Shown piece after piece: positions 2,082-58,981 of a stretch of 64,000 nt of DNA (the stretch's first letter is position 1; every line of letters starts with the position of its first letter). The DNA is from Chloroflexota bacterium. GTDB taxonomy: Bacteria > Chloroflexota > UBA11872. The notes under the pieces are model-generated. The model ran no database searches, was not told the origin of the DNA, and saw only the letters and a program-made list of their open reading frames with translations. The DNA is taken from contig JAJDVX010000042.1 of NCBI GenBank assembly GCA_022825895.1, positions 6,525 through 70,524 of the forward strand. Reading direction: 5' to 3'. The translations under genes and the position numbers were made by a program.

Positions 2082-3278
2082 GTGAATACCCGAGCGTGCG
2101 ACCTGCTGGTGGTTGGAGGCGGTCCGGCGGGGTCGGCCGCGGCGATTGCGGCACGGCGGGCTGCGCCGGAGCTCGAGACGGTGGTGCTGGACCGGCAGCG
2201 GTTTCCGCGGGACAAGGCCTGCGGGGACGGATTGGGCCCCGGGGTCGTAGCGCGGCTGTCGGACCTTAACGCCACTGAGATTGTGCGGGGTCGTCGGCCA
2301 GTCGAACGGCTGAAGATCGTGGCGCCGTCGGGGGCCGAGGTGGTGGGCGACCTGCCGGCGATTGGGAAAGCGGCGCGGGGTTACGTGGTGCCGCGGGCGG
2401 AGTTCGATGACGCCCTGCTGACGCGCGCTCGAGAGGCGGGCGCGGACGTATGGACCGAAAGCCGGCTCGAAGGATTGGCCTCGCCCGGCGGTGGGTCGGT
2501 TCGAGTCGAGGCGAGCGGGCCCAACGGACTGGTTACCGTCAGTGCGAGGGCCGTGATCGCGGCCGATGGGGCGCGGTCGGACGTGCGGCGGTTGCTTGGA
2601 GTGCCTTATAACGACTCGGCGCATACCGGGGTGGCGATCCGGGCGTACGTGGAGCGGCCCGGCGGATTCGATCACATGACGTTCTACTTCAAGCGCGAGT
2701 TGCTGCCGGCGTATGGCTGGGTGTTCCCGATCGACGCGCGGGGCGCGAACGTGGGGGTGATGATCGACGCCGCTCGCTTCCGGCGGCAGGAGCGGAGCTT
2801 GCCGGAACTGCTAAGCGATTTCCTGCGATCCAGCGGGCACGTCAGCCTGGAACCCGAGCGGTCGCGGGCCTACATGCTGCCCTTCGCCAGCTACGTGCCG
2901 CCGCTGGTGCAGGGCCGGGTGGCGCTGGTGGGCGACGCCGGGTCGATGATCAACCCGTTTTCGGGCGAGGGCATTGCCTACGGCATGGCGGCGGGCATCG
3001 AGGCGGCTCGGCGGGCAGTGCGGGCGGTGCGGGCGGGAGCGGACGACCGGCCGTTCGATGGATTCGATGCGTGGTTTCGGGAGCGATTTGGCGAGCACTT
3101 TCGGGCATCGGCGCGAGCCAAGCGGCTGGCGCAGCGGGCCTGGATTGCGGACTTTGGGGTGCGGGCGGCGCGGCGACGGCCGGAGTTCGTGCGGGAAGGC
3201 ATCGAACTGCTGGTGGGCGAGGGCACGGCGCTGTCGTGGCGGAGCCTGGCGCGGTTGCTGCTGCACGGGCGCGGCTAG
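2082..3278 (+). CDS. FAD-dependent oxidoreductase, geranylgeranyl reductase family
   Basis: 398 aa. GTG start. LLVVGGGPAGSAAA Rossmann dinucleotide-binding motif, DRQRFPRDKACGDGL, GDAGSMINPFSGEGI. Confidence 0.75.
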   Translation: MNTRACDLLVVGGGPAGSAAAIAARRAAPELETVVLDRQRFPRDKACGDGLGPGVVARLSDLNATEIVRGRRPVERLKIVAPSGAEVVGDLPAIGKAARGYVVPRAEFDDALLTRAREAGADVWTESRLEGLASPGGGSVRVEASGPNGLVTVSARAVIAADGARSDVRRLLGVPYNDSAHTGVAIRAYVERPGGFDHMTFYFKRELLPAYGWVFPIDARGANVGVMIDAARFRRQERSLPELLSDFLRSSGHVSLEPERSRAYMLPFASYVPPLVQGRVALVGDAGSMINPFSGEGIAYGMAAGIEAARRAVRAVRAGADDRPFDGFDAWFRERFGEHFRASARAKRLAQRAWIADFGVRAARRRPEFVREGIELLVGEGTALSWRSLARLLLHGRG

Positions 3279-7232: not shown

Positions 7233-7817
7233 GTGGTCCTGAGCGATCGGGCTCTACGCGAGGCGATCGCGTCAGGCCGTCTGGAAATCAAGCCGCTCGA
7301 CGCAACCGCGATTCAGCCTTCGAGCATCGACCTGCGGCTTGGGCATGTGTTCCGGGTCTTCGTGAATCAGACCGAGACACACATCGATCCGAAGCTGAGC
7401 CAGCCGGACCTCACCGAGGAAGTCGAAGTATCCGCAGGCTCCAGCTTCGTCCTCCATCCGGGTGAATTCGTACTCGCGGGAACCGTGGAGACCATCCAGA
7501 TGCCGAACGACCTCGTGGGCCGCATTGAGGGCAAGAGTTCACTGGGGCGGCTAGGATTGATGGTGCACAGCACCGCGGGCTACGTGGACCCAGGATTTCG
7601 GGGCAGTTTGACGCTGGAGTTGTCGAATCACGCCAACCTGCCCATCCTGCTGTGGCCCGGCATGCGGGTCAGTCAACTTTCGGTCATGCAGCTCACGAGC
7701 CCGGCGGAACGTCCGTACGGCTCGCCCGGGCTGAACAGCAAGTATCAGGACCAGCAGGGGTCGACCCCCAGCCGGTCGCATCTTGGATTCGCCGTCCGCG
7801 ACACCCGCACGGTTTAG
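7233..7817 (+). CDS. dcd: dCTP deaminase
   Basis: 194 aa. SSIDLRLG...VLHPGEFVLAGTVE...GRIEGKSSLGRLGLMVH are diagnostic of Dcd/dUTPase-fold deaminases. Confidence 0.9.
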   Translation: MVLSDRALREAIASGRLEIKPLDATAIQPSSIDLRLGHVFRVFVNQTETHIDPKLSQPDLTEEVEVSAGSSFVLHPGEFVLAGTVETIQMPNDLVGRIEGKSSLGRLGLMVHSTAGYVDPGFRGSLTLELSNHANLPILLWPGMRVSQLSVMQLTSPAERPYGSPGLNSKYQDQQGSTPSRSHLGFAVRDTRTV

Positions 7818-17444: not shown

Positions 17445-18704
17445 CTAGGCGCGCGGTTCAAACGCGCAGGTCTCGACGATGGCGTCGTCCGCATCGAAGC
17501 CGAACGGAGTCGTCGGTTCAATCACCTGGCAGTTCCCGGGCAGGTCGCCAAGCGCGCTCTCGCTGACCCAGAAGGTCTCAAGGTCGAGGGTGTTGCGAAT
17601 CCGACCGATACGTATGGGCTCACTGGTCGAGCGAGCGGCCAGGTTGAGCACCGTCTGGTAGCAGGCACGGTCGCTGGGCAGCGTCAGCGGCACCTTGGCC
17701 GCGTGCAGCGCCATGGCCGTAAGGGTGTTCATGGCCAGGGCTTCGTGGTCGATGGCGTCGGCCAGCTTGCGGCTGCAGAGATCCGCCAGCCCGATGCCGA
17801 CGGCGTTGCCGTGGGACTCGGGGGTGAGGCCGAGCACGGCGAGCCAGCCGTAGTCGGGCGTGCGCTCCAGTTCGCCCAGGCGACGCCACATGCCGACGAC
17901 GTTCGGATCCATGCCGGAGCCTGAGATGTTCTTCCCCATGCGGTCGATGACCAGGCCATCCAGCTTCTCGAGCGGAAGACGGGGCATGAGCTCGCGGGCG
18001 AGCTTGAGGAGGGCTTCATCGGTGACGTGGAACGCCTCGGGTGGAACGACTTCGGCCCGGGCCGGCCGGTCGAAGGCGTTCTCCACCAGGGCCACGCCGC
18101 AGAGCAGATGGCCGGAAGCCACCGTCAGGGCCGCCGCCTCGGGAATCCCCGTGGCCAGCGGATGCGCGTGCAGCGACTCGGCGCCGCGGCGATTGCCCAG
18201 ACCGATCACGCTCATCTTGCAAAGGCCGCTCTCGATCGGCCCGCGGAATCCGGTGTGGGGCTTGACGCGACCGATGACGATGACGCCATCGGCGGCCGCC
18301 GCTTCGGCGTCCAGGTGGACCGTAATGCCTGAAGCGGTTGTGCCGAGAATGACCGTGTCCATGGTGGCCCGGACGGGGGCGCCAACGCTCCGCTCGTGGA
18401 CCCCGTAATCGGCCAACACCGATGCCTGCCCCTCGGCGGTGCCGCCCCCGTGACTGCCCATGGCGGGAACGACGAACGGCCGTAGCCCAGCTGCCTTAAG
18501 CCCACGCACGAGGGTTTGCACGACCTGGACCACCGGCGACACGCCTCGCGAGCCAACGGCGATGGCTACTGAAGCGCCGCGCGGCAGGCCGGCTCGGTCG
18601 AGTTGCCGGTTCAGCCCGGCGGCCAGGTGTCCTTCGAGATCGTCGAGTTCAGCGGTCGTGAAGGCCTGGCGGACCAGGTGCATGCGGGGCGCGGCGGCTG
18701 GCAT
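17445..18704 (-). CDS. LarA-like (DUF2088) lactate-racemase-family domain protein; function uncertain
   Basis: 419 aa with no TM segments. Size and motifs (AVGSRGV..., PAMGSHGG) resemble nickel-pincer LarA-family proteins. The assignment is tentative. Confidence 0.4.
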   Translation of the reverse strand: MPAAAPRMHLVRQAFTTAELDDLEGHLAAGLNRQLDRAGLPRGASVAIAVGSRGVSPVVQVVQTLVRGLKAAGLRPFVVPAMGSHGGGTAEGQASVLADYGVHERSVGAPVRATMDTVILGTTASGITVHLDAEAAAADGVIVIGRVKPHTGFRGPIESGLCKMSVIGLGNRRGAESLHAHPLATGIPEAAALTVASGHLLCGVALVENAFDRPARAEVVPPEAFHVTDEALLKLARELMPRLPLEKLDGLVIDRMGKNISGSGMDPNVVGMWRRLGELERTPDYGWLAVLGLTPESHGNAVGIGLADLCSRKLADAIDHEALAMNTLTAMALHAAKVPLTLPSDRACYQTVLNLAARSTSEPIRIGRIRNTLDLETFWVSESALGDLPGNCQVIEPTTPFGFDADDAIVETCAFEPRA

Positions 18705-18778
18705 GAGCGCAGTCTAGCCAAGCAAGGACAGCGACCAGGCTGCGGCGCCTGGACGACCCGCCGATGCAGCAGTCCGCG

Positions 18779-19492
18779 TCAGCCGGACGTTTCCACGCGC
18801 CACGGTTGACAGCCCTTGGTACTCAGGGTGACCGGCAAATCGCGGAAGTGGGGACTCTCGCGGATTCCGTCGCTGAAGGCCAGGTCGCGAATACTGAGCC
18901 GGTCGGGACTTTGAATCACGCGGCTCTGATTGCGGCTGCCGCCCGACTCGATCCAGATGAGCTTGACCGTGCACGGGAGACCGGCATTGCCCGGCTCCCG
19001 AGCTACCAGCGTCATCTGCGTGGTGAGGTATTCGGGCAGGTTCTCTGCTCCATCCGAGATGCTGTGCATGACCCGAAACTCGCGCCGTTCCGCCAGGATA
19101 TTCAGCCAGAGGTTATAGCCGAGGATCGCCACGCCGATGAGCGCGATTCCGAGAGCCAGCGCCCCAAGCATGCGGCGACTGCGACGCTGGCGATCCTCCA
19201 TGGCCTGCGCGGCTCGTGCTCGTACGGCCGGGTCGCGGCGGACTGGCGGCGCGCGACTGGACACGGGCTCTTGAACGGTGCCCTGCGCGTCCGGAAGCTC
19301 AGGTTCTCGACCGCCGATCACATAGTGAAGCCAGTGAAACGCCCCCTTAACGAAGTGAATCGCGGCGTTTACCGCCAAGACAGCAGCGGCCCCGAAGAGC
19401 ACCCATCCAACGACAACGGCCAGCAGCGCGATTACAACAAGAACCGCGGCAACGACAAAGGCAGGCCCGGTAAAGTCCAAGATATTCGCCAA
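18779..19492 (-). CDS. Hypothetical membrane protein
   Basis: 237 aa. Two N-terminal TM helices, a third TM, and a C-terminal extracytoplasmic region. Preferred over the overlapping arginine-rich + strand ORF 18764..19708. Confidence 0.45.
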   Translation of the reverse strand: MANILDFTGPAFVVAAVLVVIALLAVVVGWVLFGAAAVLAVNAAIHFVKGAFHWLHYVIGGREPELPDAQGTVQEPVSSRAPPVRRDPAVRARAAQAMEDRQRRSRRMLGALALGIALIGVAILGYNLWLNILAERREFRVMHSISDGAENLPEYLTTQMTLVAREPGNAGLPCTVKLIWIESGGSRNQSRVIQSPDRLSIRDLAFSDGIRESPHFRDLPVTLSTKGCQPWRVETSG

Positions 19493-47032: not shown

Positions 47033-48646
47033 ATGCCTACCGCCTACCGCACCGTCATCGGTCTGGAAACCCACGTCCAACTCCGCACCCGCAGCAAGAT
47101 GTTCTGCGGCTGCGCCGCCGACTACGCCAACGCCCGGCCCAACACCCACGTCTGCCCCGTCTGCCTGGGCATGCCCGGCGTCCTGCCCGTCATCAACCGC
47201 GAAGCCGTGGACCACACCATCCGCACCGGCCTGGCCCTCAACTGCGAGATTCCCGAATACGCCAAGTTCGACCGCAAGAACTACGCCTATCCCGACCTGA
47301 TGAAGTGGTACCAGATTTCCCAGTACGACCTCCCGCTCTGCATCGACGGCCACTTCGACGTCGAGGTGAACGGCGCAACCACCCGCGTTGGCATCACCCG
47401 CGTCCACCTGGAAGAGGACACCGCCCGCCTGACCCACGTAACCTCCGCCGACGGCGCCCCGGCCAGCCTGATCGACGTCAATCGCTCCGGCGCGCCGCTC
47501 ATGGAAATCGTCTCCGAGCCGGACATCCAGACGCCCGTCGAAGCCATGGCCTACGGCGAGAAGCTGCGCGCCCTGCTTCGCTGGATCGGCGTTTCTACCG
47601 CCAATATGGAGGACGGCGCCCTGCGCATCGACGCCAACATCTCAGTCTGGCCCCAGGGCGAACCGATCGGCGACGTCAAGGTCGAAGTCAAGAACATGAA
47701 CTCCTTCCGGTCGCTGGGCCGCGCCCTGGCCTTCGAAATCGAGCGCCAGACCGCCCGGCGCGAGCGCGGCGAACCGATCGAGCAGGAAACCCGCGGCTGG
47801 GACGAGACTTCAGGCACAACCCGCTCCCAGCGAACCAAGGAATACGCCCACGACTATCGCTACTTCCCCGAACCCGACCTGCCGCCCCTACACGTCACAC
47901 GTCAACGCGTCGACACCCTTCGCGCCGCCCTCCCCCGCATGCCCGACCAGGTCGCCGCCGACCTGCTCCAACAAGGCGCCCCCGAGGCCGACATCGCCGA
48001 ACTCGTCCAGGACCGTCCCCTCACCGACTACACCCTCGCCGTCATCGAAGCTGGCGCTTCCGCCGGCGAGGCCGTCACCTGGATCGTCCACGAACTCCGC
48101 CGCGCCCTCAACGCCCACACCGCCACCCGCCGTTCCCGCGAAAGCGGGAGCCCATCCGCTCTTCCTCCCTCTCCTGGGGGAGAGGGTTGGGGTGAGGGGT
48201 CTTCCGAGCAACCAACGCTCGGGTTAGGCAAAGGCCTCCAGGAAGGAAAGGACGGGAGTCAGGGTCGGCCGCCCCCCAACCGCCCAAGCGCAGGAACCAT
48301 CATCCCCATCCCTCCAGCTGAAATCGCCTCGCTCCTAGAATTCCGCGCCCAGGGCGCCGTCAGCAGCACCATGGCCGGCGAAGTCCTCGACGAAATGTTC
48401 GCCACCGGCAAGTCAGCACGGGCCATCGTGGAGGCCCGCGGCCCCCAGATCAGCGGCCAGGACGAACTCCTCGCCATCGCCCGCCAGGTCATTGAAGAGA
48501 ATCCCCAGGCCGTCCAGGACTACCGCGACGGCAAGGGCCGCGCCATCCAGTACCTCATGGGCCAGGTCATGCGCATCACCCGCGGCAAAGCCAACCCGGG
48601 CGCCGTAAGCGCGCTCATCCGTACCGAACTCGACGGCGCCAAATAA
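47033..48646 (+). CDS. gatB: Asp-tRNA(Asn)/Glu-tRNA(Gln) amidotransferase subunit B, with a ~55-aa repeat-derived in-frame insertion
   Basis: Internal ATG ([17 protein letters not shown]). GatB catalytic core and C-terminal YqeY-like tail. An extra segment in the linker before the tail is encoded by repeat copy C. Confidence 0.88.
48156..48238. repeat. Repeat copy C of the MITE-like element, located inside the gatB reading frame
   Basis: ccgctcttcctccctctcctgggggagagggttggggtgaggggtcttccgagcaaccaacgctcgggttaggcaaaggcctc. More than 85% identical to copies B and D. Read in frame as ...[33 protein letters not shown]... Confidence 0.75.
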
Positions 48647-48698
48647 TCGCTGCAGGCCCTCGCCTTGGCGGCCAGGATCGAGCCTGCGCTCCCGCACC

Positions 48699-48823
48699 AG
48701 AGACCTTTGCAGAACAGCCCCGCGCCCTCGAAAGTGGGGCCTCTCTTGCTCCCTCTCCCCGTGGGAGAGGGCTGGGGTGAGGGTCTTCCGCGCAACCAAC
48801 CCTGGGTTACGCAACGGTCTCTC
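48699..48823. repeat. Repeat copy D of the MITE-like element (downstream of gatB)
   Basis: agagacctttgcagaacagcc...gcctctcttgctccctctccccgtgggagagggctggggtgagggtcttccgcgcaaccaaccctgggttacgcaacggtctctc. Confidence 0.7.
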
Positions 48824-48904
48824 ACCAAGGGCTGTCGCGCCGAGCGCCTGCGAGCGACCTGGTCTAAAATAGACCAATCTAAACCTCCCACAGGAGCATC
48901 CGCG

Positions 48905-49183
48905 ATGGAGCACACCACATCGCAACGCACCTGGACCGTCGCCGAGGCCAAGGCCAAGCTGTCCGAGGTCCTGCGGCTCGCCGAGGAAGAAGGGCCCCAA
49001 CGCATCGGCCTGCGCCGGCCCTTCGTTGTCGTGCCCGAAGCGCTTTGGGACGCCAGGCAAGCGCGCGACAGGCACTTGGGCCGGTGGCTGCTTGAAAACG
49101 TGCCAAGGGGCCTGAACTGGGAAGTCCCCCGTGACCGGCGATCCGATAGGGCGGTTCCCTTTTCGGAAGAAGACGAACGGTGA
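48905..49183 (+). CDS. Type II antitoxin, Phd/YefM-like (VapB partner)
   Basis: Internal ATG with AGGAG 8 nt upstream. MEHTTSQRTWTVAEAKAKLSEVLRLAEEEGPQRI... Stop overlaps the vapC GTG start. Confidence 0.7.
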   Translation: MEHTTSQRTWTVAEAKAKLSEVLRLAEEEGPQRIGLRRPFVVVPEALWDARQARDRHLGRWLLENVPRGLNWEVPRDRRSDRAVPFSEEDER

Positions 49184-49599
49184 CGGGGTTTCTCCTGGAC
49201 ACGAACGTCATTTCCGAATTGACCAGGGACGAACCCGATTCGCGAGTGGTCCGGTTTCTCGACGACGAAGGCGACTTATGGCTGTCGTCCGTCGTCGTGT
49301 ACGAGATGGAATATGGCCTTGCGACCCTTCCCCAGGGGCGCCGCGCGGCAAGGTTGCGCGCTTTGCAAGCGAATATCCTCGCCGCCTTTGCAGGCCGGCT
49401 CCTGTCCTTGGATCAATCCGGCGCCCGCTGGTCAGCCGAGCTCCGAGCGCAGGCACGCCACGTCGGGCGGACCATCGACGTCGGTGACGCCCTCATCGCC
49501 GGCACTGCCAGAGCGCACGGCCTGGCCCTCGCCACCCGCAACATCCGCGACTTCCAGGGAATGGACATCCACCTCGTCAACCCCTGGGACTACCCATAA
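49180..49599 (+). CDS. vapC: Type II toxin VapC (PIN domain ribonuclease)
   Basis: 139 aa. GTG start. LLDTNVISEL...D...acidic PIN residues...ATRNIRDF. Confidence 0.85.
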   Translation: MTGFLLDTNVISELTRDEPDSRVVRFLDDEGDLWLSSVVVYEMEYGLATLPQGRRAARLRALQANILAAFAGRLLSLDQSGARWSAELRAQARHVGRTIDVGDALIAGTARAHGLALATRNIRDFQGMDIHLVNPWDYP

Positions 49600-49966
49600 C
49601 GGTCTTCGCCCACGCGCACTCCCAGAACGCCGCCACCCGCCCTTCGTCCGCGCCCCCCGTTCGTGGTCAGCCTGTCCTGAGCTTGTCGAAGCGGACGGGC
49701 CAGAGTCTTCGGCGGCCCGTGTCGAACCACAAAGGCCCAGCATCCAACCCTCCCAGACAGTCCCCTCCGTCATTCCGGAGGCTTCACCCGGAGTCCAGGG
49801 CCCTCAACCTGCAACCTGTGCCTCGGCGCCCGTCAGACGTCCGAGCGAACTAGTTAGACCATTCCTGGTACCGCGCCATTCCGCCCCGCGTATCGCTCCA
49901 CGCTCCAACGCCTTCCTCCGACCAGCCCACGTATCATGCCCGCGCCAACAGTGAGGGCGGATCACG

Positions 49967-52588
49967 ATGGCTAGACGGGCAGGTTGCGAACCGGCCTACG
50001 ACGCTGCCCAACGCTGGGTCGACGCAGCCTTACGCAAGGACGACTCGCTCTTCACCCCTGGCCACCCAATCTGGTCACTGCACAACCTCTATGACTTCCG
50101 CAAGCGAATATTCGATGACTCCGGACCGTCTCACGGAGGGTTTTATCGTCGATTCGAGCACCAACTCAGAGATGCACCATCCGATACTATTCAAATTGCC
50201 GCCGAAATCCTCTACGTGTACTTTCTGATCGCCGACCAGCGTGCCATACGAGGAACCACAAAGAGGCAACGGATCCGGGAAGTCATTAGCTGGGCTCCCA
50301 CTGCCCTGGAGGTCCCTGCCAATCTAATCGAGTCCGATATCGCAATCGATTCTGGAATAATGAATCCAGGAGCCGCGTCCCAGACGACTATCCACGCCCA
50401 AGTCCATATGATTGCTGAATTTGTATTGCACTGGAAGCAGCTTCCTGAAAGCGATCGTAGAGACTCCCTATCAGATCCTTGGGGTTTCTTGCAGGCCGTC
50501 CGATCGGTCCAAGTTCCCAGAGCCCAACCACAAGCGGAAGCGTTGCTGCATCTCGTCCATCCAGATTCATTCGAACCAAGTATGAGGAATGATAAGGGAC
50601 AGATTAGATCATCGTTTAACGATTCCTTGATTGCTCAGGCTGATGACGTTGATAGAGATTTATTCACAATACGTGAGCAACTGACCGGCATATCAAGCAT
50701 TTACAGAGAAGGTTTCGACTTTTACTCGCCTGAGATACATTTCGTTTGGAGTTCAGGATGGACCAAATTAGAACAATTCGTTCGCTGGGGAAATCGTTTC
50801 TTGGAGCATCCCAGCTTTGTTGAACTCGAGATTGACATCAAGCTCAGTCCTGCAGACCGCCTCAAACAGGCTCGATCTGCACTGGAATCTGGAGCAGACA
50901 ATTGGCTTGCCCTGCTAGAGGAAGCCTTCAAGAATCATGCTCTAGTGAGGTTTGACTCACGTGACGCATTTATCAAGTGGTGTAAGGAGAATGAGTCTGA
51001 CGCAAAGTCCGCTCTTCGGGAATTATGGAACGATCAAGCCGGCATCGTCGAATCAGTTCGATCTTTCTCGTCGCAGTTTCCAATGAGCGTCGTTCGCGGA
51101 GTAGGCACACGGACAAGGTTGATTTCGTTTCTAGCGATGGCCATTGATCCACGCCGATACCCTATATACGGGTACTCGCTCTTCCAGAATGCATACAACC
51201 TGGTCGGACACGATCCACCGGAAGATAGTGCTGACGAGGCTGACGTCTACTCCCATGCCCTCAGATTCCTGGACACCGTGCTGGACGAAGCAAAGAAGCA
51301 TGAACTTCACTTGCCGGATCGTCTGTACGCCCAGTCGGTGCTCTGGTCAATCACACGACCCGACCGATACGAGACGATCCTCCAGAAGGCTGAGCACGAA
51401 GCTTTTCGTCGATACCGTGGCGACGTTATAGCCCCGAGTCTCACGTTTGAGGAGCTTGTAGAAAATCAACGATTCGTCCAGAACCGCGAAATCACGGCCA
51501 TTAGCCTGCCCAACGCAAGCGACGGAAGCGGGGATCTGACATATGCGCTTACTCCACCACCCCCCGCCGGACTCAACTTCGATTCAATTGCCCGCACCCT
51601 GACCGGTACACCATCGGCAACGCAGCCAGCCACGACCTACATCTACACGGCAGTCGACGGGGACGGTGCCAGCGCCACGCAGGATTTCTCGATTACGGTG
51701 TCCGCTGAGACGCTTCATGACCTCGCTGCCCGGCTCTATTGGGACGCCGAGCACCTCCAAAACATCCAGCGCCTGATCGAGGACAAGGGCCAAATCGTCT
51801 TCTACGGCCCGCCGGGCACCGGCAAGACCTTCGTCGCCCAGGAACTCGCCAGTCACTTCGCCCGCGCCGAAGGCTCAACCGACCTCGTCCAATTCCACCC
51901 GTCGTACGCCTACGAAGACTTTGTGGAGGGCTTCCGTCCAGACACGATCAGGGACCAACCAGGCTTCAAACTACGCGAAGGCCCCCTCAAGCGCATTGCC
52001 GACAAAGCCCGCGCCAATCCCAACGCAACCCACGTCCTGGTCATCGACGAAATCAACCGCGGCAACGTCGCCCGGGTCTTCGGCGAGCTCTACTTCCTGC
52101 TCGAATACCGCGACCGCGAGATATCGCTCCAATACTCCGAGCAACAATTCGCACTCCCCAAGAATCTTTGGTTCATCGCCACCATGAACACCGCCGACCG
52201 ATCCATCGCCCTGGTGGACGCCGCCCTCCGCCGCCGCTTCCACTTCGTCGAGTTCTCACCGCACACGCCGCCCGTCCAGGGCCTGCTAACCCGCTGGCTT
52301 GAAACGAGAGAGTCCGACCTTCAATGGGTCGCCAGGTTGCTGGACCTGGCCAACGACAAACTCAGCGACCGCCACCTGGCCATCGGCCCCAGCCACTTCA
52401 TGCAAAAGAATCTTGACGAAACATGGGTCGAGTTGATCTGGAACCACTCGATCTACCCGTATGTTGAAGAACAACTCTTCGGGGATTACGACCGCCTCCA
52501 AGATTTTAAGTTCGAGAATCTCAAGCGTGCGGCGCAGCGGCAGGATCGGAGTCCAGGCAGCGGCGATGACACGCCTGACGCTGACTGA
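49967..52588 (+). CDS. mcrB: McrB-family AAA+ GTPase with a ~570-aa uncharacterised N-terminal region
   Basis: 873 aa. The C-terminal 300 aa (GPPGTGKTF Walker A, VLVIDEINRGNVARVFGELYFLLEYR, FIATMNTADRS, RRRFHFVEF) are an McrB-type GTPase. The N-terminal region has no confident match and has lower GC. Confidence 0.8.
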   Translation: MARRAGCEPAYDAAQRWVDAALRKDDSLFTPGHPIWSLHNLYDFRKRIFDDSGPSHGGFYRRFEHQLRDAPSDTIQIAAEILYVYFLIADQRAIRGTTKRQRIREVISWAPTALEVPANLIESDIAIDSGIMNPGAASQTTIHAQVHMIAEFVLHWKQLPESDRRDSLSDPWGFLQAVRSVQVPRAQPQAEALLHLVHPDSFEPSMRNDKGQIRSSFNDSLIAQADDVDRDLFTIREQLTGISSIYREGFDFYSPEIHFVWSSGWTKLEQFVRWGNRFLEHPSFVELEIDIKLSPADRLKQARSALESGADNWLALLEEAFKNHALVRFDSRDAFIKWCKENESDAKSALRELWNDQAGIVESVRSFSSQFPMSVVRGVGTRTRLISFLAMAIDPRRYPIYGYSLFQNAYNLVGHDPPEDSADEADVYSHALRFLDTVLDEAKKHELHLPDRLYAQSVLWSITRPDRYETILQKAEHEAFRRYRGDVIAPSLTFEELVENQRFVQNREITAISLPNASDGSGDLTYALTPPPPAGLNFDSIARTLTGTPSATQPATTYIYTAVDGDGASATQDFSITVSAETLHDLAARLYWDAEHLQNIQRLIEDKGQIVFYGPPGTGKTFVAQELASHFARAEGSTDLVQFHPSYAYEDFVEGFRPDTIRDQPGFKLREGPLKRIADKARANPNATHVLVIDEINRGNVARVFGELYFLLEYRDREISLQYSEQQFALPKNLWFIATMNTADRSIALVDAALRRRFHFVEFSPHTPPVQGLLTRWLETRESDLQWVARLLDLANDKLSDRHLAIGPSHFMQKNLDETWVELIWNHSIYPYVEEQLFGDYDRLQDFKFENLKRAAQRQDRSPGSGDDTPDAD

Positions 52589-53795
52589 GCACCAACCGCG
52601 CGAGAATGTTCGTCTCACGTCCGAGCAACTTGACACGCTCCTGCGCTTGGTGCGCTCGGTCGACGTGTCGCCAACGTCCACGAGCAACACCTGGATTCTG
52701 AGGCCTGGCTCCCAGGTAGGCGTCGTTCGCCTGCCCGATCTCACCGTCGAAATCCGGCCCAAGCTCCCCATCCACCGCGTCCTCTTCCTGGCCTCGTACG
52801 CCCTCGGCGCCTTCAAGCTCAAGCCCGACATCGCGGACATCGATCGATCACCCGACCTGGTGGAAGCCATGGTCCAGCTATTTCACGCCGCCGTCCGGCA
52901 GGCCACTGGGCGCGGCTTATTGCAGGGCTATAGGACTCACGAGGAAACGCTGAACGTCGTCCGCGGGCGCATTCGCATTGAGGAGCAACTGCGTCGGCGC
53001 TTCGGCATCCCCGTCCCCATTGAGGTCCGCTACGACGAATTCACGCCTGACATCCCGGCCAACCGCATCCTCAAGGCCGCCGTGGGCCGGCTGGCCTGGC
53101 TGCCGCACCGCTCCCGCGACACGCGCCGGCTGCTGAGTGTCATGCGCGCCGTCTTGGCCAACGTGTCGGACGTCGAATATCGCTCGAACGATATCCCCAA
53201 CATTCCCATCACCCCGCTGAACACCCACTACCGGCCCGCTCTGGCCCTGGCCCGACTCATCCTCAAGTCGGGCGCTGTCGAACTCGCGGCTGGCAAGGTC
53301 GAATCCGCCTCGTTCCTGATCGACATGAACAAAGTGTTCGAAGATTTCGTGGTCGTCGGCCTGCGCGAAGCGCTCGGTCTGACGGAATACACCTTTCCCC
53401 AGGAAGCACACGGCCGCGAACTCTGGCTGGCTGCGGGCCAGAAAGTACGGCTAAAGCCGGACATCTCCTGGTGGCAAGACAACCGTTGCATATTCGTCGG
53501 CGACGCCAAGTACAAGCGCACCACCGCTCACGGCGCCCAGAACCACGACATCTATCAGGCCCTCGCCTACGCCGTCGCCGCCGGCCTGCCTGGCGCCCTC
53601 CTTATCTACGCTCACGACGAACAGGAACGCGTCGCCCCTGCCGTCTACGACATCCCGCACGCCAACAAGCGCATTGAGGTCATGGTCCTGGACCTACGCG
53701 GCTCGCGGGATGAACTCATGCAACGCATTCACGCCCTCGCCCACAAGGTTCGCGCAAACGTGGCGCCGGTCACGGCTGCCCACCTCGCCGCCTGA
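52566..53795 (+). CDS. mcrC: McrC-family nuclease subunit (PD-(D/E)xK)
   Basis: Internal ATG overlapping the mcrB 3' end by 23 nt. D...IFVGDAKYK PD-(D/E)xK core. Typical McrC length and position. Confidence 0.8.
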   Translation: MTRLTLTEHQPRENVRLTSEQLDTLLRLVRSVDVSPTSTSNTWILRPGSQVGVVRLPDLTVEIRPKLPIHRVLFLASYALGAFKLKPDIADIDRSPDLVEAMVQLFHAAVRQATGRGLLQGYRTHEETLNVVRGRIRIEEQLRRRFGIPVPIEVRYDEFTPDIPANRILKAAVGRLAWLPHRSRDTRRLLSVMRAVLANVSDVEYRSNDIPNIPITPLNTHYRPALALARLILKSGAVELAAGKVESASFLIDMNKVFEDFVVVGLREALGLTEYTFPQEAHGRELWLAAGQKVRLKPDISWWQDNRCIFVGDAKYKRTTAHGAQNHDIYQALAYAVAAGLPGALLIYAHDEQERVAPAVYDIPHANKRIEVMVLDLRGSRDELMQRIHALAHKVRANVAPVTAAHLAA

Positions 53796-54121
53796 GCCAG
53801 CCACGGCCTCGGGCGCGTCGATGCCCAACAGCGGCAGGCAACTCCTAAGGATTCCTTAGTTGTTCGAACCGCGGGCACACCCAGTCAAACGACACCTCGG
53901 CCACGACAGCTCGAATCCGTCGTCGCGATTGGTCTCGGGATCAGAGCCCGAGGCCACCTGCCCTGGCGCCGCTAGACTCCGGCAACTTGTGCAGAATCTG
54001 CACAAGTTCGAACCGAGAGCGGTTGAGTCCATCTCCCGCGAGATCCAACTACCGAGGAATCCTCGGTAGTTGCAAACGACGCCGACCGGCTCGCCCACCG
54101 CCCCTCATCGTCGCCGCTACC

Positions 54122-54439
54122 TCAGATCGGGACTTCCCTCAGTTCCCCGGGGCCTATGTGGTCAAGCGCCGTACGGATCTCCTCCACGCGCAGCTGCACC
54201 TTGGGCCACGCGGTAGAAAGCAGAACCACCACGGCCAGCCTTCGGCCGGCAAGGTTCTGCTGATATCGCAAATTCTGATCGGTAGTGATCAGGACGTCGT
54301 AGCCCGCCTGTTCGGCGCTGTCGATCAGGTCCCCGTTATCCATATCCGACCAGCCGCGCTCCGCTGCCGTGTCCACGACATGACTGTCCAAGTGACGACG
54401 CAGCGGCGCCGGTGTGCCCTGATCGAACAGAATCCTCAC
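54122..54439 (-). CDS. DUF5615 PIN-like domain protein (putative toxin partner of DUF433)
   Basis: 105 aa. MRILFDQGTP...DSAEQAGYDVLITTDQNL pattern typical of DUF5615. Confidence 0.7.
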   Translation of the reverse strand: MRILFDQGTPAPLRRHLDSHVVDTAAERGWSDMDNGDLIDSAEQAGYDVLITTDQNLRYQQNLAGRRLAVVVLLSTAWPKVQLRVEEIRTALDHIGPGELREVPI

Positions 54440-54663
54440 GGTTGCGCGGGAACTCGCAGAGCCTCCGCTTCGTGTTCCAGCACCGCTCGAACCTGCCAGG
54501 CTTCAACGCCCGGGAACCATTCCAGAAACTGGCCAACCGTAGCGCCGCTCTCCAGGTTCTCGAAGAGGGCGGAAACCGGCACCCGCGTTCCGGCGAACGT
54601 CCACGCCCCGCTGAGCTTTCCGGGACGACATTCCACCGCCGGGCACCTCTCCCAGTCGGTCAC
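54436..54663 (-). CDS. DUF433 domain protein (putative antitoxin)
   Basis: 75 aa. PGKLSGAWTFAGTRVPVSALFENLESGATVGQFLEWFP matches the DUF433 core. Stop overlaps the downstream DUF5615 start. Confidence 0.7.
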   Translation of the reverse strand: MTDWERCPAVECRPGKLSGAWTFAGTRVPVSALFENLESGATVGQFLEWFPGVEAWQVRAVLEHEAEALRVPAQP

Positions 54664-54880
54664 GCTGTCACCTCCGTACCTCAGCTAAGTCTCCAATCCC
54701 ATCTTCCGTGTCGCACAGGCAGCCGTCCATAACCATCAGCCAACCTGCCGCCCGTTCCTACCCAATGCGGCTCCCCGTGCCGCATAGCGGCCGAGTCCCT
54801 CACCAACCTCTTCCGCCCCCGCCCCCTCCTGCGTACGGACCGGTTCCTAACCGGCCTCTTCTCCGACGCTAAACTTCACC

Positions 54881-56041
54881 ATGGCCAGCCGCGAATCCCA
54901 TTTCGCGGCCGACCGCTTACCTGCGCCCTCGGGGCGCACGCCGGAAGACCTGGCCGCGTGGGTGGCGCTGAGTTCGGTTCCCGGGCTTGGGTCGGCCACG
55001 TTGTGGAACCTCATCCGCGCCTTCGGCGACCTCAGCCAGGCGTGGACTGCCAGCGCCGCCCGGCTCCAAGCCGCCGGCGCTTCGCCCGCCGTCGCCAGAG
55101 GCGTTGAGACCGCCCGTCGCGAAAAATCAGCCGACCACGCCTTGGAAGAGCTCGCCAAGCACGACGGCCGCGCCATCGCCTGGCACGACCCGGCCTATCC
55201 GGCCCAACTGCGCGAGATTCCCGACCCACCGCCGTTGATTTATGTCAAGGGCGACCTCGCCTGCGCCGGCTACCAGCGCAGCGTCGCCATCGTCGGCACC
55301 CGCCGCATGACCGCCTACGGCAAGCAAGTCACCGCCCAACTGGCCGGAACCCTGGCCCGCGCGGGCATCTGCGTCGTCAGCGGTATGGCCGCCGGCGTCG
55401 ATGGCGAAGCCCACCGCGCCGTGCTGGAATCCGAAGGCGCCACGGTCGCCGTTTGGGGCACCGGCCTGCACGAGATCTATCCCCGCGCCAACCGCCGCCT
55501 CGTCCCCCGCATTCTCGAGCGCGGCGCCATCGTCACCGAGTACCCCGTCGGCGTGCGCGGACTCCCCGAGAACTTCCCCCAGCGCAACCGCATCATCAGC
55601 GGCCTCTCGCTCGCCACCATCGTCGTCGAGGCCCCGCTCGAAAGCGGCGCCCTTCACACCGCCCGCTACGCCATCGAGCAGAACCGCGAGATCCTGGCCG
55701 TCCCGGGCAGCGTCTTCGCCGCCGCCAGCCGCGGAACCAACCGGCTCATCAACCGCGGCGAAGCCCGCGCCGTCACCTCCGCCGAGGACGTCCTCGAAGC
55801 CCTGCAAATCGCCGTCAGCCCCGAGCAGTTGGCAATGCCCCAACTCGTCAAACCCACCGCCGAGGAACGCGCCGTTCTTCGCCACCTCACTACCGACCCC
55901 ATGCACATCGACGAACTGGTGCGCCTGGCCGCCCTGCCCGCCTTCCGCGTTTCCGCCCTGCTCGCCGTCATGGAAGTCAAGGGCCTCGTCCGCAACCTCG
56001 GCAGCGCCCACTACGTCACCGCCCGCCCACATGCCAACTGA
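54881..56041 (+). CDS. dprA: DNA-processing protein DprA (Smf)
   Basis: 386 aa. SAM-like N-terminus, Rossmann-like core (VAIVGTRRMTAYG...VVSGMAAGVDGEAH...AVWGTGL), C-terminal winged-helix region. Confidence 0.85.
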   Translation: MASRESHFAADRLPAPSGRTPEDLAAWVALSSVPGLGSATLWNLIRAFGDLSQAWTASAARLQAAGASPAVARGVETARREKSADHALEELAKHDGRAIAWHDPAYPAQLREIPDPPPLIYVKGDLACAGYQRSVAIVGTRRMTAYGKQVTAQLAGTLARAGICVVSGMAAGVDGEAHRAVLESEGATVAVWGTGLHEIYPRANRRLVPRILERGAIVTEYPVGVRGLPENFPQRNRIISGLSLATIVVEAPLESGALHTARYAIEQNREILAVPGSVFAAASRGTNRLINRGEARAVTSAEDVLEALQIAVSPEQLAMPQLVKPTAEERAVLRHLTTDPMHIDELVRLAALPAFRVSALLAVMEVKGLVRNLGSAHYVTARPHAN

Positions 56042-56078
56042 TACCCCCGCCCTATACCCGCCGCGGGGCGACGGGGTG

Positions 56079-56190
56079 GACACATTCGGCGCAAAACTGA
56101 ACACATTCGCCGGAAAACTGAACACATTGGGCGCAAAACTGAACACATTCGCCAGAAAACTGAACACTTCGCACGATTCCGCTGAACAGG
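56079..56190 (+). repeat. Tandem direct repeat, 21-bp unit (g[c/g]aaaactgaacacattcgcc), about 4.5 copies
   Basis: gacacattcggc|gcaaaactgaacacattcgcc|ggaaaactgaacacattgggc|gcaaaactgaacacattcgcc|agaaaactgaacacttcgcac|gattccgctgaaca. Begins 38 nt after the dprA stop. Confidence 0.85.
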
Positions 56191-56265
56191 TGTCTACCTT
56201 GGTCGCGATCCGCGCAGTGCCCCGCCCCGACGCCCGAGGAACCGTACGCCAGTCCGCGCACGGCC

Positions 56266-56294
56266 TTGCCATGCGTACGCTGACGGTGTACAAT
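56266..56294 (+). promoter_or_regulatory. Candidate sigma-70-type promoter (TTGCCA-17 bp-TACAAT) for secDF
   Basis: Near-consensus -35 and -10 hexamers with a 17-bp spacer, ~440 nt upstream of the secD start. Confidence 0.45.
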
Positions 56295-56542
56295 CGCGGA
56301 CACCGACACGCGGCGCAACCTGTCATGGCTTCCGTTACCGGCCGCAGCACCCGGCCATCCCCTTGTTTCCCGAGTCCCGGATCCTTGTATGCGCCGCCCG
56401 CCGCGGACTCTTGCTTGACGTCCCCGCATCTGCACGTCAGCAACCATCAGCCCGCGACCCGTACCCTCCCCGCTACCCGCCCCCGCCTCCTCCTGTGCAT
56501 GGCCCGCCCCGCCGTCGGCCAGCACAACGAGATTCCGCGCCA

Positions 56543-56597
56543 AACTGTCTCTGGCCAGCCCGGTCCCAAGAGGGACCGGGCTGGCCAGAGACAGTTC
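56543..56597 (+). promoter_or_regulatory. Perfect 25-bp inverted repeat (hairpin) in the secD 5' leader
   Basis: aactgtctctggccagcccggtccc-aagag-gggaccgggctggccagagacagtt. 25/25 complementary with a 5-nt loop, followed by cccccctt rather than a T-tract. Confidence 0.6.
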
Positions 56598-56735
56598 CCC
56601 CCTTCACCCCCACGAATGCGCTCACAACCTGCCGTCCCGCCTGGCGACCAAACCGCCGATGCGAACAGGCACGGCCAGTCGACGAAACGCCGCCGCGTAT
56701 GATCAGCGCTGGTTTTCCGGGAGATTGCTAAGTCC

Positions 56736-58043
56736 GTGCGCAGACGTCAGTGGGCCACGCTTGCCGCCATCGCCGTCATCTTCGGCTTTGCCTTGTACGT
56801 ATCGCTGCCCGGCACGCCTGGCCTGCCTTTTGAAGTGGCGGGGCGCGATCTGTCGGACCTGCGCTTCCGACAGGGCCTGGACTTGCAGGGCGGCCTGCAC
56901 GTGCGCTTCCAGGCCAGTCCGCCGCCCGGCCAGCAGTTGCAGGACGGCGACATGGACGCCGTCAAGCGCATCATCGAAAACCGCGTCAACGCCCTCGGCG
57001 TGGCCGAGCCGCTCATCCAGATCGAAGGCGATAACCGTCTGATTGTCGAGCTCCCCGGCGTCGACGACCCCGAAGAAGCCATCCGCGTCTTCCGCCAGAC
57101 CGGCCAACTGCTCGTCATCAATACCGGCTTCGACTTCATCGACGAGGGAACCATCCTCCCCGCCGACCCATCCCAGACCGTGCTCCGCGGCCGCGACCTG
57201 CGCGACGCCCGCGTCGGCTTTGATTCCCTGGGCGCGCCCATGATCGAGTTCGACTTGCAGCCCGATGCCGCCAACCGCTTCCAGACCTACACCGCCAGCC
57301 ATCTCAACGAAGTTCTGACCATCACGGTTGACGACGTGGTCATCAGTTCAGCGCGCATCGAGGCGGCCATCCGCGAGAGCGGCGTCATCCGCGGCTCGTT
57401 TACGGCCGACGAGGCCCGCAACGTCGCCATCCAGCTTCGCTACGGCGCCCTGCCCGTCCCGTTGGAAGTGGTGGAGACGCTCAGTGTCCGCCCGACCCTG
57501 GGCCGGGAGTCCCTGGAGTTGAGCCTGCGAGCCGGCGTTGTCGGCGCGCTGCTTGTGCTGATCTTCATGGTCGCCTTTTACCGCGTGCCGGGCCTCGTGG
57601 CGGCCCTGGCGCTGGCGGTCTACGCCTCAGTCGTCTTCGCCGTCTTCAAGCTGATTCCCGTAACCCTCACACTGTCGGGCCTGGCCGGATTCATCCTGTC
57701 CGTCGGCGTGGCCGTCGACGCCAACATCCTTATTTTCGAACGCACTCGTGAGGAATTACGCTCCGGCCGAGCCATCCGCGGCGCCGTCGAGTCGGGCTTC
57801 AACCGCGCCTGGACGTCCATCCGCGATTCCAACATCTCCACCCTCATCATCTGCGCCGTGCTCTTCGGCTTTGGCAGCGGCGGCGTGCGCGGCTTTGCCG
57901 TCACCCTCGCCATCGGCGTCGCCGTCAGCATGTTCAGCGCCATCACCGTCAGCCGAAATCTGCTGCGCCTCGCCATCACCTGGCCGGCCCTCACCCGGCC
58001 GCGCCTCTTCGGCGCCGGCGCTCCCGCAGGTTCCGAAGCCTGA
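56736..58043 (+). CDS. secD: Protein translocase subunit SecD
   Basis: 435 aa. Periplasmic domain plus six C-terminal TM helices. GxxxD...AIFERTREEL motifs. Confidence 0.9.
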   Translation: MRRRQWATLAAIAVIFGFALYVSLPGTPGLPFEVAGRDLSDLRFRQGLDLQGGLHVRFQASPPPGQQLQDGDMDAVKRIIENRVNALGVAEPLIQIEGDNRLIVELPGVDDPEEAIRVFRQTGQLLVINTGFDFIDEGTILPADPSQTVLRGRDLRDARVGFDSLGAPMIEFDLQPDAANRFQTYTASHLNEVLTITVDDVVISSARIEAAIRESGVIRGSFTADEARNVAIQLRYGALPVPLEVVETLSVRPTLGRESLELSLRAGVVGALLVLIFMVAFYRVPGLVAALALAVYASVVFAVFKLIPVTLTLSGLAGFILSVGVAVDANILIFERTREELRSGRAIRGAVESGFNRAWTSIRDSNISTLIICAVLFGFGSGGVRGFAVTLAIGVAVSMFSAITVSRNLLRLAITWPALTRPRLFGAGAPAGSEA

Positions 58044-58981
58044 TGTTTGCCATCACCTCCCGTCGCGGCTGGTGGTATCTACTGTCGCTGGCGTTGCTCT
58101 TGCCAGGCGTCATCGCCTTGCTCACCGGTGGACTGAAACCGGGCATCGACTTCACCGGAGGCTCGCTGATTCAACTTCGATTCGACGAGACCGTGACCCA
58201 ACAGGCAGTCCAGGCAGCCGCGGTGGAGCGCGGCTATCCCGGTGCGACCGTCCAGCTAACTGAAGATCGCGGCGCCCTCGTGCGAACGCCACCCCTCGAA
58301 GTTGAAGCCAAGGACGCGTTGGTGTCCGCAATCTTCGATCACGTCGGTCCTGGCCAGGAACTCAGCTTCTCCACCATCGGTCCGGTGGTTGGCGCCGAAC
58401 TCACCCGCGCGGCGGCTATCGGCGTGGCCGTGGCCTCGGCTCTCATCCTGCTCTACGTCATGTGGGCCTTCCGCCGCATGGAACGGCCCGTCGTGCTCGG
58501 CCTCGCCGCCATCGGTGCGCTCCTGCACGACGCGCTGTTCCTGCTGGGCGTTTTTGCCCTGCTGGGGCACGTAATCGACGTTCAAGTGGACGCGCTTTTC
58601 GTTACCGCCATCCTCACGGTCATCGGCTTCTCGGTAAACGACACCATCGTCGTGTTCGACCGTATTCGCGAGAACCGGCAGCGCCATCTCCGGCTGCCCG
58701 ACGCCCAGCGCCCGGACTTCGAGCAGACGGTCAACTTCAGCGCCAACCAGAGCCTCTCCCGCTCCCTCAACACCTCGCTCACGGCGCTGCTGGTGTTGCT
58801 CGCTCTCATCGTGCTGGGCGGTCCCACCATCCGCCTCTTCGTCGTCGCCCTGGCTGCCGGCTTCATGATCGGAACCTATTCGTCGATCTTCGCCGCCTCG
58901 TCAGCCCTTGTTTCGTGGGATCGGCGCGATGTGCCGCGGGCCTGGGAGCGATTTCGAAGCCGGCTGACGTTGGTTCGCTAG
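58043..58981 (+). CDS. secF: Protein translocase subunit SecF
   Basis: 312 aa. GIDFTGG, SecF TM bundle, DTIVVFDRIREN. Confidence 0.9.
   Translation: MFAITSRRGWWYLLSLALLLPGVIALLTGGLKPGIDFTGGSLIQLRFDETVTQQAVQAAAVERGYPGATVQLTEDRGALVRTPPLEVEAKDALVSAIFDHVGPGQELSFSTIGPVVGAELTRAAAIGVAVASALILLYVMWAFRRMERPVVLGLAAIGALLHDALFLLGVFALLGHVIDVQVDALFVTAILTVIGFSVNDTIVVFDRIRENRQRHLRLPDAQRPDFEQTVNFSANQSLSRSLNTSLTALLVLLALIVLGGPTIRLFVVALAAGFMIGTYSSIFAASSALVSWDRRDVPRAWERFRSRLTLVR

Follow-up and report, generated by a model that had tools for sequence, protein, structure and literature searches.

The stretch of Chloroflexota DNA analysed here (64 kb, 67% GC; hereafter the window) carries a tandem array, a promoter-like site, a C-rich leader and a perfect palindrome in the 695-bp spacer between dprA and secD. 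Together these parts form a module of which the window holds a single copy. The features of the spacer and its flanking genes, all on the plus strand, are as follows.

54881-56041, plus strand: dprA (Pfam DNA_processg_A, E=3.8e-76; DprA_WH, E=4.9e-12)
56077-56160, plus strand: four canonical 21-bp units, one G-type (TGGACACAT) and then three A-type (TGAACACAT)
56077, plus strand: start of unit 1, TGGACACATTCGGCGCAAAAC
56098, plus strand: start of unit 2, TGAACACATTCGCCGGAAAAC
56119, plus strand: start of unit 3, TGAACACATTGGGCGCAAAAC
56140, plus strand: start of unit 4, TGAACACATTCGCCAGAAAAC
56161-56197, plus strand: degenerate fifth unit (TGAACACTT...) and terminal unit
56161, plus strand: start of unit 5, degenerate, TGAACACTTCGCACGATTCCG
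56183-56197, plus strand: terminal palindrome-like unit, TGAACAGGTGTCTAC
56266-56294, plus strand: predicted module promoter, sigma-70-like, with -35 TTGCCA, 17-nt spacer and -10 TACAAT (10/12 matches)
56301-56542, plus strand: leader, C-rich and G-poor, with ATG at 56325-56327 (an NTG about 30 nt after the -10)
56543-56596, plus strand: palindrome (hairpin), perfect 25-bp arms and 4-nt loop, 100% complementary
56597-56611, plus strand: asymmetric 3' tail CCCCCCTTCACCCCC, which orients the hairpin element and is conserved in other modules
56697-56735, plus strand: proximal secD signal GTATGATCAGCGCTGG...GGAGAT..TAAGTCC, with -10-like TATGAT at 56698-56703, outside the module
56736-58043 and 58043-58981, plus strand: secD and secF, downstream of the module (Pfam SecD_1st, SecDF_P1_head, SecD_SecF_C, Sec_GG)

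The array had been noticed in a preliminary description as about 4.5 copies of period 21, and Tandem Repeats Finder confirmed it at 56080-56172 (period 21, 4.5 copies, 86% matches, score 137); taken as period 42, the same array gives 2.2 copies with 92% matches. The period of 21 extends over 56077-56197, as four good units, the degenerate unit and the terminal palindrome-like unit, and begins 36 nt past the dprA stop, where 38 nt had been given. Each canonical unit consists of the core with an A4 tract and a variable GC spacer of 5-6 nt. Since the units run head-to-tail with merely these 5-6 variable nt between them, the array is not CRISPR, in which 23-50 nt repeats alternate with unique spacers of comparable length, and this had been argued correctly; the junctions are variable as described, but they are GC-rich spacers of 5-6 rather than 2-5 nt, and the informative variation is G or A at core position 3. 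The 15-mer AAAACTGAACACATT has three exact matches and one with two mismatches, and none outside the array in 64 kb. Allowing up to three mismatches yields five matches where 0.26 are expected in 64 kb, a number reached by 0 of 100 shuffles. Also borne out were the placement of the conserved cores on one helix face by the 21-bp period and the AT-richness of the array, whose GC content of 0.48-0.56 against about 0.68 around it makes it the AT-richest segment of its region. On the other side of dprA (window about 48000-54700; L001, L003-L008) lies a variable defence/toxin island, which in the window's lineage encodes McrBC with PIN/PhdYeFM and DUF433 (McrC-like ORF at 52461-53795) and in relatives, at the matching place, Fic/RhuM, SIR2_2 or HicAB.

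The terminal unit reads TGAACAGGTGT(C/T)(T/C)AC among secD orthologues and is a perfect GTGAACAGGTGTTCAC in L007, L008 and L094. It has some resemblance to the LexA (Cheo-type) SOS box, the palindrome GAAC-N4-GTTC that precedes SOS genes; the corresponding string is GAACAGGTGTTC in those three loci and GAACAGGTGTCT in the window, and the unit occurs in secD modules only, with no SOS gene. A reading of the repeated core itself as a DnaA box was rejected by eye, at no more than 6-7 of 9 matches.

The predicted promoter lies about 70-105 nt downstream of the array and is the sole promoter-like site in 55900-56900 (0.1 expected); it is kept in secD orthologues. That the array stands upstream of a promoter-like site was described correctly; 56266-56294 belongs to the module, and module-less relatives keep the proximal secD signal. 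This proximal signal is present in all relatives, including the module-less L003, L005 and L006. Directly before the secD GTG, GTATGATCAGCGCTGGTTTTCCGGGAGAT.GCTAAGTCC is near-invariant in all relatives with or without the module and is probably the ancestral secD -10 and leader. A sigma-54 reading of the module promoter was rejected by eye for its wrong -24/-12 spacing.

The leader of the window has a GC skew of -0.28 to -0.43. Despite a 125-codon open frame from ATG 56325, its interpretation as a conserved protein was rejected, as across modules the frame stops at variable places and the hairpin is read in three frames, and as orthologue substitutions (versus L099) are mostly non-synonymous. 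Across modules, an SD-like GGAG/GGAA with an NTG is found about 30-40 nt after the module promoter, in many cases with 7-10 nt between the two and a conserved start MLARLLRLL.. or MPACLPRL.., and a short leader peptide may be translated. RNA folding of 56301-56625 gave a total of -134 kcal/mol (z=-7.5), in which the palindrome forms the 25-bp stem. No terminator-like site was found in 55900-56900, and the hairpin is followed by TTCCCCCC, not a U-run. Rfam returned no match across the whole window at the gathering threshold; at a permissive E-value threshold applied to the region only, the hairpin gave just sub-threshold miRNA-like matches.

The DprA protein was found on two other assemblies, L001 and L002. 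Over the 554 nt that follow the array, L001 matches the window at 100% identity, yet it has one unit more (five canonical), and the short-read contig L002 breaks off inside the array; the number of units is therefore unstable or difficult to assemble. In relatives with a DprA 86-89% identical (L003-L005), the dprA-secD spacer is 59 bp and array-free, and it is 209 bp and likewise array-free in the more distant L006. Other similarly diverged relatives carry a homologous insert of 700-1100 bp at this site, again downstream of dprA, with parts and order as in the window: an array of 6-12 units, promoter, variable C-rich stretch, hairpin, tail TTCACCCCC and then GTATGATCAGCGCTGG. The module is kept at dprA-secD in at least 10 genomes (relatives with a secD module: L007, L008, L017, L020, L066, L081, L094, L098, L099, L102, L120) and is absent from equally close relatives. 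The 59-bp spacer of the module-less relatives retains GTATGATCAGCGCTGG, and the array thus belongs to an inserted or deletable module and not to the ancestral secD promoter; the junctions of filled and empty sites could not be aligned. In an alignment of seven secD orthologues, the 9-nt cores are invariant in surroundings of 68-87% identity, with variable spacers and unit number; the tail after the hairpin is also invariant among secD orthologues, and their hairpins carry compensatory changes. One orthologue, L008, has a nested insertion of about 320 bp (7470-7790) between array and promoter that is absent in L007. Duplicated CCCGCGCGC(A/G)GCCT(T)G flanks the insertion, and inside it lies a REP-like …GGTGAGGGGTC… segment that recurs upstream of HTH-TerL arrays (see below).

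Species-representative genomes (one per species) were scanned with the pattern TGRACACATT-N11-TGRACACATT. The scan returned at least 117 stretches where about 4 were expected, as estimated here from the collection size, and at least 96 of the matched loci lie in Chloroflexota MAGs, in at least 17 genomes, with at least 16 loci in the richest. On sequence grounds, we assign the array of the window to this dispersed family with high confidence. The search for the motif as a regulon that had been proposed earlier thus came out positive: the motif marks more than 100 loci among related genomes, and the orthologous dprA-secD spacer keeps it, with a unit number that ranges from 6 to 12 and differs by one between L001 and the window. 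Arrays of the family comprise 3-12 units at a strict period of 21 bp, the final step often being 22, and 394 internal units give the consensus AAAA(C/G)TG(G/A)ACACAT(T/C).G.C. Information is about 2.0 bits per position over the core TGRACACAT and about 1.4 over the A-tract (87-93% A at positions -4 to -2, 56-57% at -5), and the spacer is free. Two unit types exist, TGGACAC (G) and TGAACAC (A), which differ solely at core position 3. Both are present in 67 of 73 modules, in homogeneous blocks (88 type changes, compared to 290 ± 11 in shuffles); 44 modules open with the G block and 21 with the A block. The array in L066 includes a run of four identical units.

Pattern matches from other phyla are two-unit, as chance predicts, with the exception of Aquaticitalea. 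MAGs of this genus of Flavobacteria (39% GC) contain intergenic 21-bp arrays (L039 239-560; L015 7587-7880; L068) that reach about 17 units (TGGACACATTGGGAGTTTGTG) and agree with the Chloroflexota arrays in their 10-nt core and in period; they precede ordinary genes and have no HTH gene nearby. These may represent a coincidence forced by the search pattern, or else a system that is related or arose by convergence. A second dispersed repeat, (G)AGCCTG(C/T)CCTGAGC(C/T)TGTCGAAG(G/C)GG, occurs once in the window (49670-49692) and recurs between array and promoter in modules L018, L028, L035 and L124.

Across genomes, the module is 600-900 bp of non-coding DNA, consisting of array, promoter, C-rich leader and perfect hairpin, and it stands before many housekeeping genes. 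The predicted promoter has the motif CTTGCC..TCGTAATCA..GTGTACAAT about 65-260 nt downstream of the array (consensus over 47 modules, CTTGCCnnTCGTAATCAnnnnGTGTACA(A/C)T), and the leaders of 36 modules measure 252 nt at the median, with a GC skew that averages -0.40. At array loci, all 70 mapped hairpins are on the array strand and downstream, mostly 270-660 nt away. In 64 hairpin copies, Watson-Crick pairing holds for 1585 of 1600 pairs and has been preserved through many compensatory changes. Selection on the RNA would be expected to leave strand-biased G:U pairs, and this explanation was rejected, as 5 G:U against 2 A:C in the 1600 pairs give no RNA-specific signal; the pattern suggests instead a constraint on the DNA (cruciform or single-stranded) or palindrome-correcting mutation rather than ordinary selection for RNA structure. 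The next gene is co-oriented with the module in 56 cases and opposite in 9. Downstream genes are diverse housekeeping genes, encoding SecD, SecA, a ClpB-like protein, PepF, acetyl-CoA synthetase, sulfite reductase, ValRS and oxidoreductases, and no transposase is among them. An inverted-repeat search in the window found neither terminal inverted repeats nor target duplications at the module ends. Paralogous copies have their motifs in common but not their linker sequences.

Part of the family is associated with a gene, designated HTH-TerL, that encodes a protein of about 480-500 aa in which an IS481-type N-terminal HTH_23 is fused to a homologue of the terminase large subunit. Four of its loci came from the pattern scan (L045, L060, L079, L125), to which L200 was added:

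L079, 5375-6871, minus strand: HTH-TerL gene
L060, 446-1894: HTH-TerL gene
L125, 150-1652, minus strand: HTH-TerL gene
L045, 4654-6100: HTH-TerL gene
L200, 6001-7277: HTH-TerL gene

Homology to TerL was evident from PHROG_2 (E=1e-25) and the ATPase domain of PDB 4znj (E=1e-9), and a Walker A GGERAGKS and the nuclease-like motifs IDPG and DRDNHALK were recognized by eye in the translation. An array of 5-6 units lies 9-60 nt upstream of the gene in all five loci, and a module hairpin follows about 130-160 nt past the stop in the two loci whose sequence extends there. At least three of the loci (L079, L125, L200) have a module-type promoter 340-500 nt ahead of the array, which makes the order promoter, array, gene, hairpin, unlike that of other modules. 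By contrast, TerL homologues without the fusion have neither array nor hairpin at three of three loci (L126, a paralogue in the genome of L079; L127, the orthologous locus in another genome; and L203) and have a different small upstream ORF. The association of array and HTH_23 gene in cis is therefore 5/5 for fused and 0/3 for unfused loci. The TerL homologue of L006, a genome without the secD module, is shorter (440 aa; alignment over 87% of the fused query) and probably of the unfused type. A search of the 64-kb window did not turn up the HTH-TerL gene.

The TerL gene is solitary and chromosomal, with no portal or capsid operon beside it. JGI metagenomes contributed one close TerL relative only, of the unfused, array-free type. 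IMG/VR viral contigs contained no arrays and no close TerL relatives, and a viral origin was rejected on these grounds, the relatives there being at most 30% identical. Two further observations concern these loci. In L127, housekeeping and toxin-antitoxin genes separate the TerL orthologue from a gene, 8 kb away, for an HK97-type major head protein (18315-19169; Pfam Phage_capsid_4, 41 bits; PHROG major head protein, E=3e-12); the head protein gene may be a scattered remnant of a prophage or of a GTA-like gene set. In L060, a second, 5'-truncated TerL copy (2119-3049; residues 189-498; 75-85% identity) directly follows the hairpin behind the HTH-TerL gene, and is a partial duplication or the result of a cassette inserted into a resident TerL gene.

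A search with the HTH alone returned just five small proteins, and no DDE catalytic domain was associated with the HTH. One of them, P0245, is the truncated N-terminus of an IS481-like transposase, standalone and 67% identical to the fused HTH, and comes from the sampling project of the window but from a genome of 63% GC. Two GGAGACATnnTGAACAC direct repeats lie ahead of it, as far from the start codon as the last unit is in the TerL loci, and these repeats sit in an apparent IS end, TGTGTAGACCGGAGACAT... On account of these repeats, the unit of an HTH gene plus TGRACAC sites looks ancestral and IS-derived. Tandem paralogue pairs of 79-86 aa HTH-only IS481-like transposase remnants were also seen in L201 (4640-4966 and 5915-6240) and L202 (300-621 and 1570-1895); a REP-like repeat (…CCCCTCTCCCCGTGGGAGAGGGTTAGGGTGAGGG…) truncates each of them, and two TGAACAC direct repeats stand before it.

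Based on these data, the explanation we favor, with a probability of roughly 0.45, is that the array would be the protein-binding sub-module of a dispersed, clade-specific composite element and would act as a cooperative operator array controlling the module promoter. In this model, every 21-bp unit would present one core, AAAA(C/G)TG(G/A)ACACAT, and because the period equals two helical turns, cores and phased A-tracts would share one face of the double helix, so that the 4-12 units could be coated or wrapped cooperatively by an oligomerising helix-turn-helix protein. The sites would most likely be those of a transposase-derived DNA-binding domain, and the best candidate for the binder, as we infer from the linkage in cis, is the HTH_23 of IS481-transposase type that in array-bearing genomes is fused to a TerL-like ATPase-nuclease. 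Occupancy of the G and A blocks would set the activity of the sigma-70-like promoter 65-260 nt downstream (56266-56294 in the window), which in turn would transcribe the C-rich, Rho-loading-like leader and the very stable 25-bp hairpin and continue into the housekeeping gene, here secDF. A regulated upstream promoter would thus be added to the gene's own proximal one. Consistent with an operator array, the motif recurs upstream of predicted promoters of several genes in a fixed orientation, and core positions are conserved at orthologous sites where flanks have diverged. The original proposal of an operator array fits this recurrence, while an isolated operator set of secD does not, the array being part of a dispersed element. 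Several points count against the model: the arrays, at 65-260 nt upstream of the -35, are distant by the standards of a classical activator; tandem duplication alone could explain the homogeneous blocks (as in the identical units of L066 and the extra unit of L001); the HTH-TerL loci deviate in part order; and no HTH-TerL gene was found in the window.

The finding of all parts in fixed order at dozens of loci requires that the module spread as a unit, which it must have done, to judge by these sequences, before being stably maintained ahead of particular genes; selfish propagation, and not regulatory use, could therefore lie behind part of its conservation. Taken further, this would make the module a selfish or neutral repeat, a non-autonomous (MITE- or BOX-like) derivative of an IS481-related or HTH-TerL element, whose array is a set of former transposase sites behaving as a VNTR with no regulatory role and whose downstream genes merely tolerate it. 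Presence or absence at dprA-secD among equally related genomes (59 bp in L003-L005, about 700-1100 bp in others), a unit number that differs between assemblies of the same sequence, runs of identical units and the transposase derivation of the HTH all agree with such a repeat. A gene-containing version (array, HTH-TerL, hairpin) exists as well, although as an autonomous copy it has a different order of parts and encodes an enzyme that is not a known transposase. We nevertheless consider a purely selfish repeat unlikely, about half as probable as the operator array, given that the search revealed no terminal inverted repeats or target duplications and that junctions were not alignable. The 56-to-9 bias in orientation toward the downstream gene, the persistence of the module before one and the same gene in 10 genomes or more, where the aligned orthologues have invariant cores, and the retention of both unit types in 67 of 73 modules also speak against it, and the sharing of motifs but not linkers by paralogous copies means that there was no recent burst of transposition.

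The bracketing of the HTH-TerL gene by array and hairpin, together with its genuine homology to TerL (PHROG_2, PDB 4znj, the Walker A and nuclease-like motifs), raises a more improbable interpretation. Here, the arrays would be pac- or cosB-like sites for the HTH of HTH-TerL and the palindrome, extruded as a cruciform, a cosN-like cut site for its RuvC/RNase-H-like nuclease. Arrays and palindromes would then be chromosomal recognition and cleavage sites of a domesticated terminase with a transposase HTH, dozens of cos/pac-like modules would mark the cell's own DNA for cutting, translocation or packaging (GTA-like transfer or programmed cleavage), and the promoter would help to extrude or expose the site. 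The near absence of G:U pairs (5/1600), by which the hairpin is kept as a perfect DNA palindrome, fits this, as does the head protein gene near the TerL orthologue in L127. The solitary state of the TerL gene, without an adjacent portal/capsid operon, and the lack of arrays and close TerL relatives in IMG/VR viral contigs do not, and packaging would leave promoter, leader and co-orientation with housekeeping genes unexplained. Distances are discordant too, at 270-660 bp from array to hairpin compared to tens of bp in lambda cos. Less probable still is a purely architectural role, in which A4 tracts phased every 21 bp in 68% GC DNA would curve the helix intrinsically and thereby stimulate the promoter, no specific binder being needed. 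The A-tract is indeed conserved in internal units at an exact two-turn period, in the AT-richest segment; however, the core is conserved more than the A-tract, curvature does not account for the block-wise G/A dichotomy, and HTH genes are preceded by the same core. Iterons of a plasmid- or chromosome-type origin, which had been offered alongside operators, typically have a period of 21-22 bp, and unit number is unstable here as well. They are hardly credible at 16 or more arrays per chromosome in the richest genome, with neither a rep or dnaA gene nor an AT-rich unwinding element nearby, with dprA and secDF as neighbours and with the array missing at dprA-secD in equally related genomes. Replication-slippage noise, the case that had been named as refuting a functional array, is as poorly credible, being excluded by conservation of the motif across at least 17 genomes.

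Among known systems, the module resembles in kind the composite intergenic repeats (BOX, BIME, Correia) on one hand and iterated operator arrays on the other. BOX of Streptococcus pneumoniae (boxA, n × boxB, boxC) and the BIME/REP elements of Escherichia coli are dispersed intergenic composites with hairpins, reported to affect the expression of neighbours. The module shares with them ordered sub-modules, a variable number of tandem units, dispersal beside ordinary genes and stable hairpins, and it belongs with them in general kind only, with no homology; its 21-bp units, two single-base types in blocks, promoter with C-rich leader, strong bias in orientation and host phylum, Chloroflexota, set it apart. 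Correia/NEMIS elements of Neisseria are dispersed intergenic repeats that can supply promoters and form long hairpins when transcribed. The module likewise combines a dispersed intergenic repeat with a predicted promoter and a long hairpin, but Correia elements have terminal inverted repeats and a TA target duplication, neither of which was found for the module, and no tandem array.

Iterated operators (Rep iterons, ParR parC, LytTR 9-bp repeats with 12-bp spacers, OmpR/PhoB, SARP) are similar in that their direct repeats, spaced by whole helical turns, share a face of the helix and in many cases precede or overlap a promoter. In such systems a replicon or regulon member has a single array or a few, usually of 2-5 sites, whereas the module has 4-12 units of two types in dozens of arrays and looks mobile, and its putative binder is of the HTH_23 transposase type and not Rep, ParR, LytTR or winged-helix. 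Lambda cos (the nicking site cosN and the cosB R-sites, with the terminase genes directly behind) and pac sites, which have repeated boxes for the small terminase subunit, share with the HTH-TerL loci direct repeats just upstream of an HTH-bearing terminase gene and a symmetric element nearby; the HTH-TerL gene, however, is chromosomal, solitary and non-phage, its palindrome with 25-bp arms is hundreds of bp away, and most arrays are without a terminase gene and precede housekeeping genes instead. The IS481 family is linked to the arrays by the 67% identity of the fused HTH to a truncated IS481-like N-terminus and the TGAACAC direct repeats before that remnant, but no DDE domain accompanies the HTH, and the arrays are tandemly expanded rather than inverted ends. 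A literature search did not find the unit or hairpin strings, nor any description of such arrays in Chloroflexota, and array, promoter and hairpin are apparently undescribed in the searchable literature and Rfam. New features are the two-type blocks, the built-in promoter and leader, the perfect palindrome and the link to an HTH-terminase fusion.

If the operator-array explanation is true, uncultured Chloroflexota would possess a bacterial regulatory network made from a mobile element, in which a transposase-derived domain and its amplified sites have wired a portable promoter and leader to core genes of protein export (secA, secDF), chaperones, tRNA synthetase and central metabolism. Testable handles are the 9-bp core, the pair of unit types and, as candidate binder, a domain of about 70 residues. 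Should the terminase interpretation be true, it would represent a new cellular use of viral packaging machinery. The arrays also explain a practical nuisance, namely that short-read assemblies break at them and that unit number varies between assemblies of one population.
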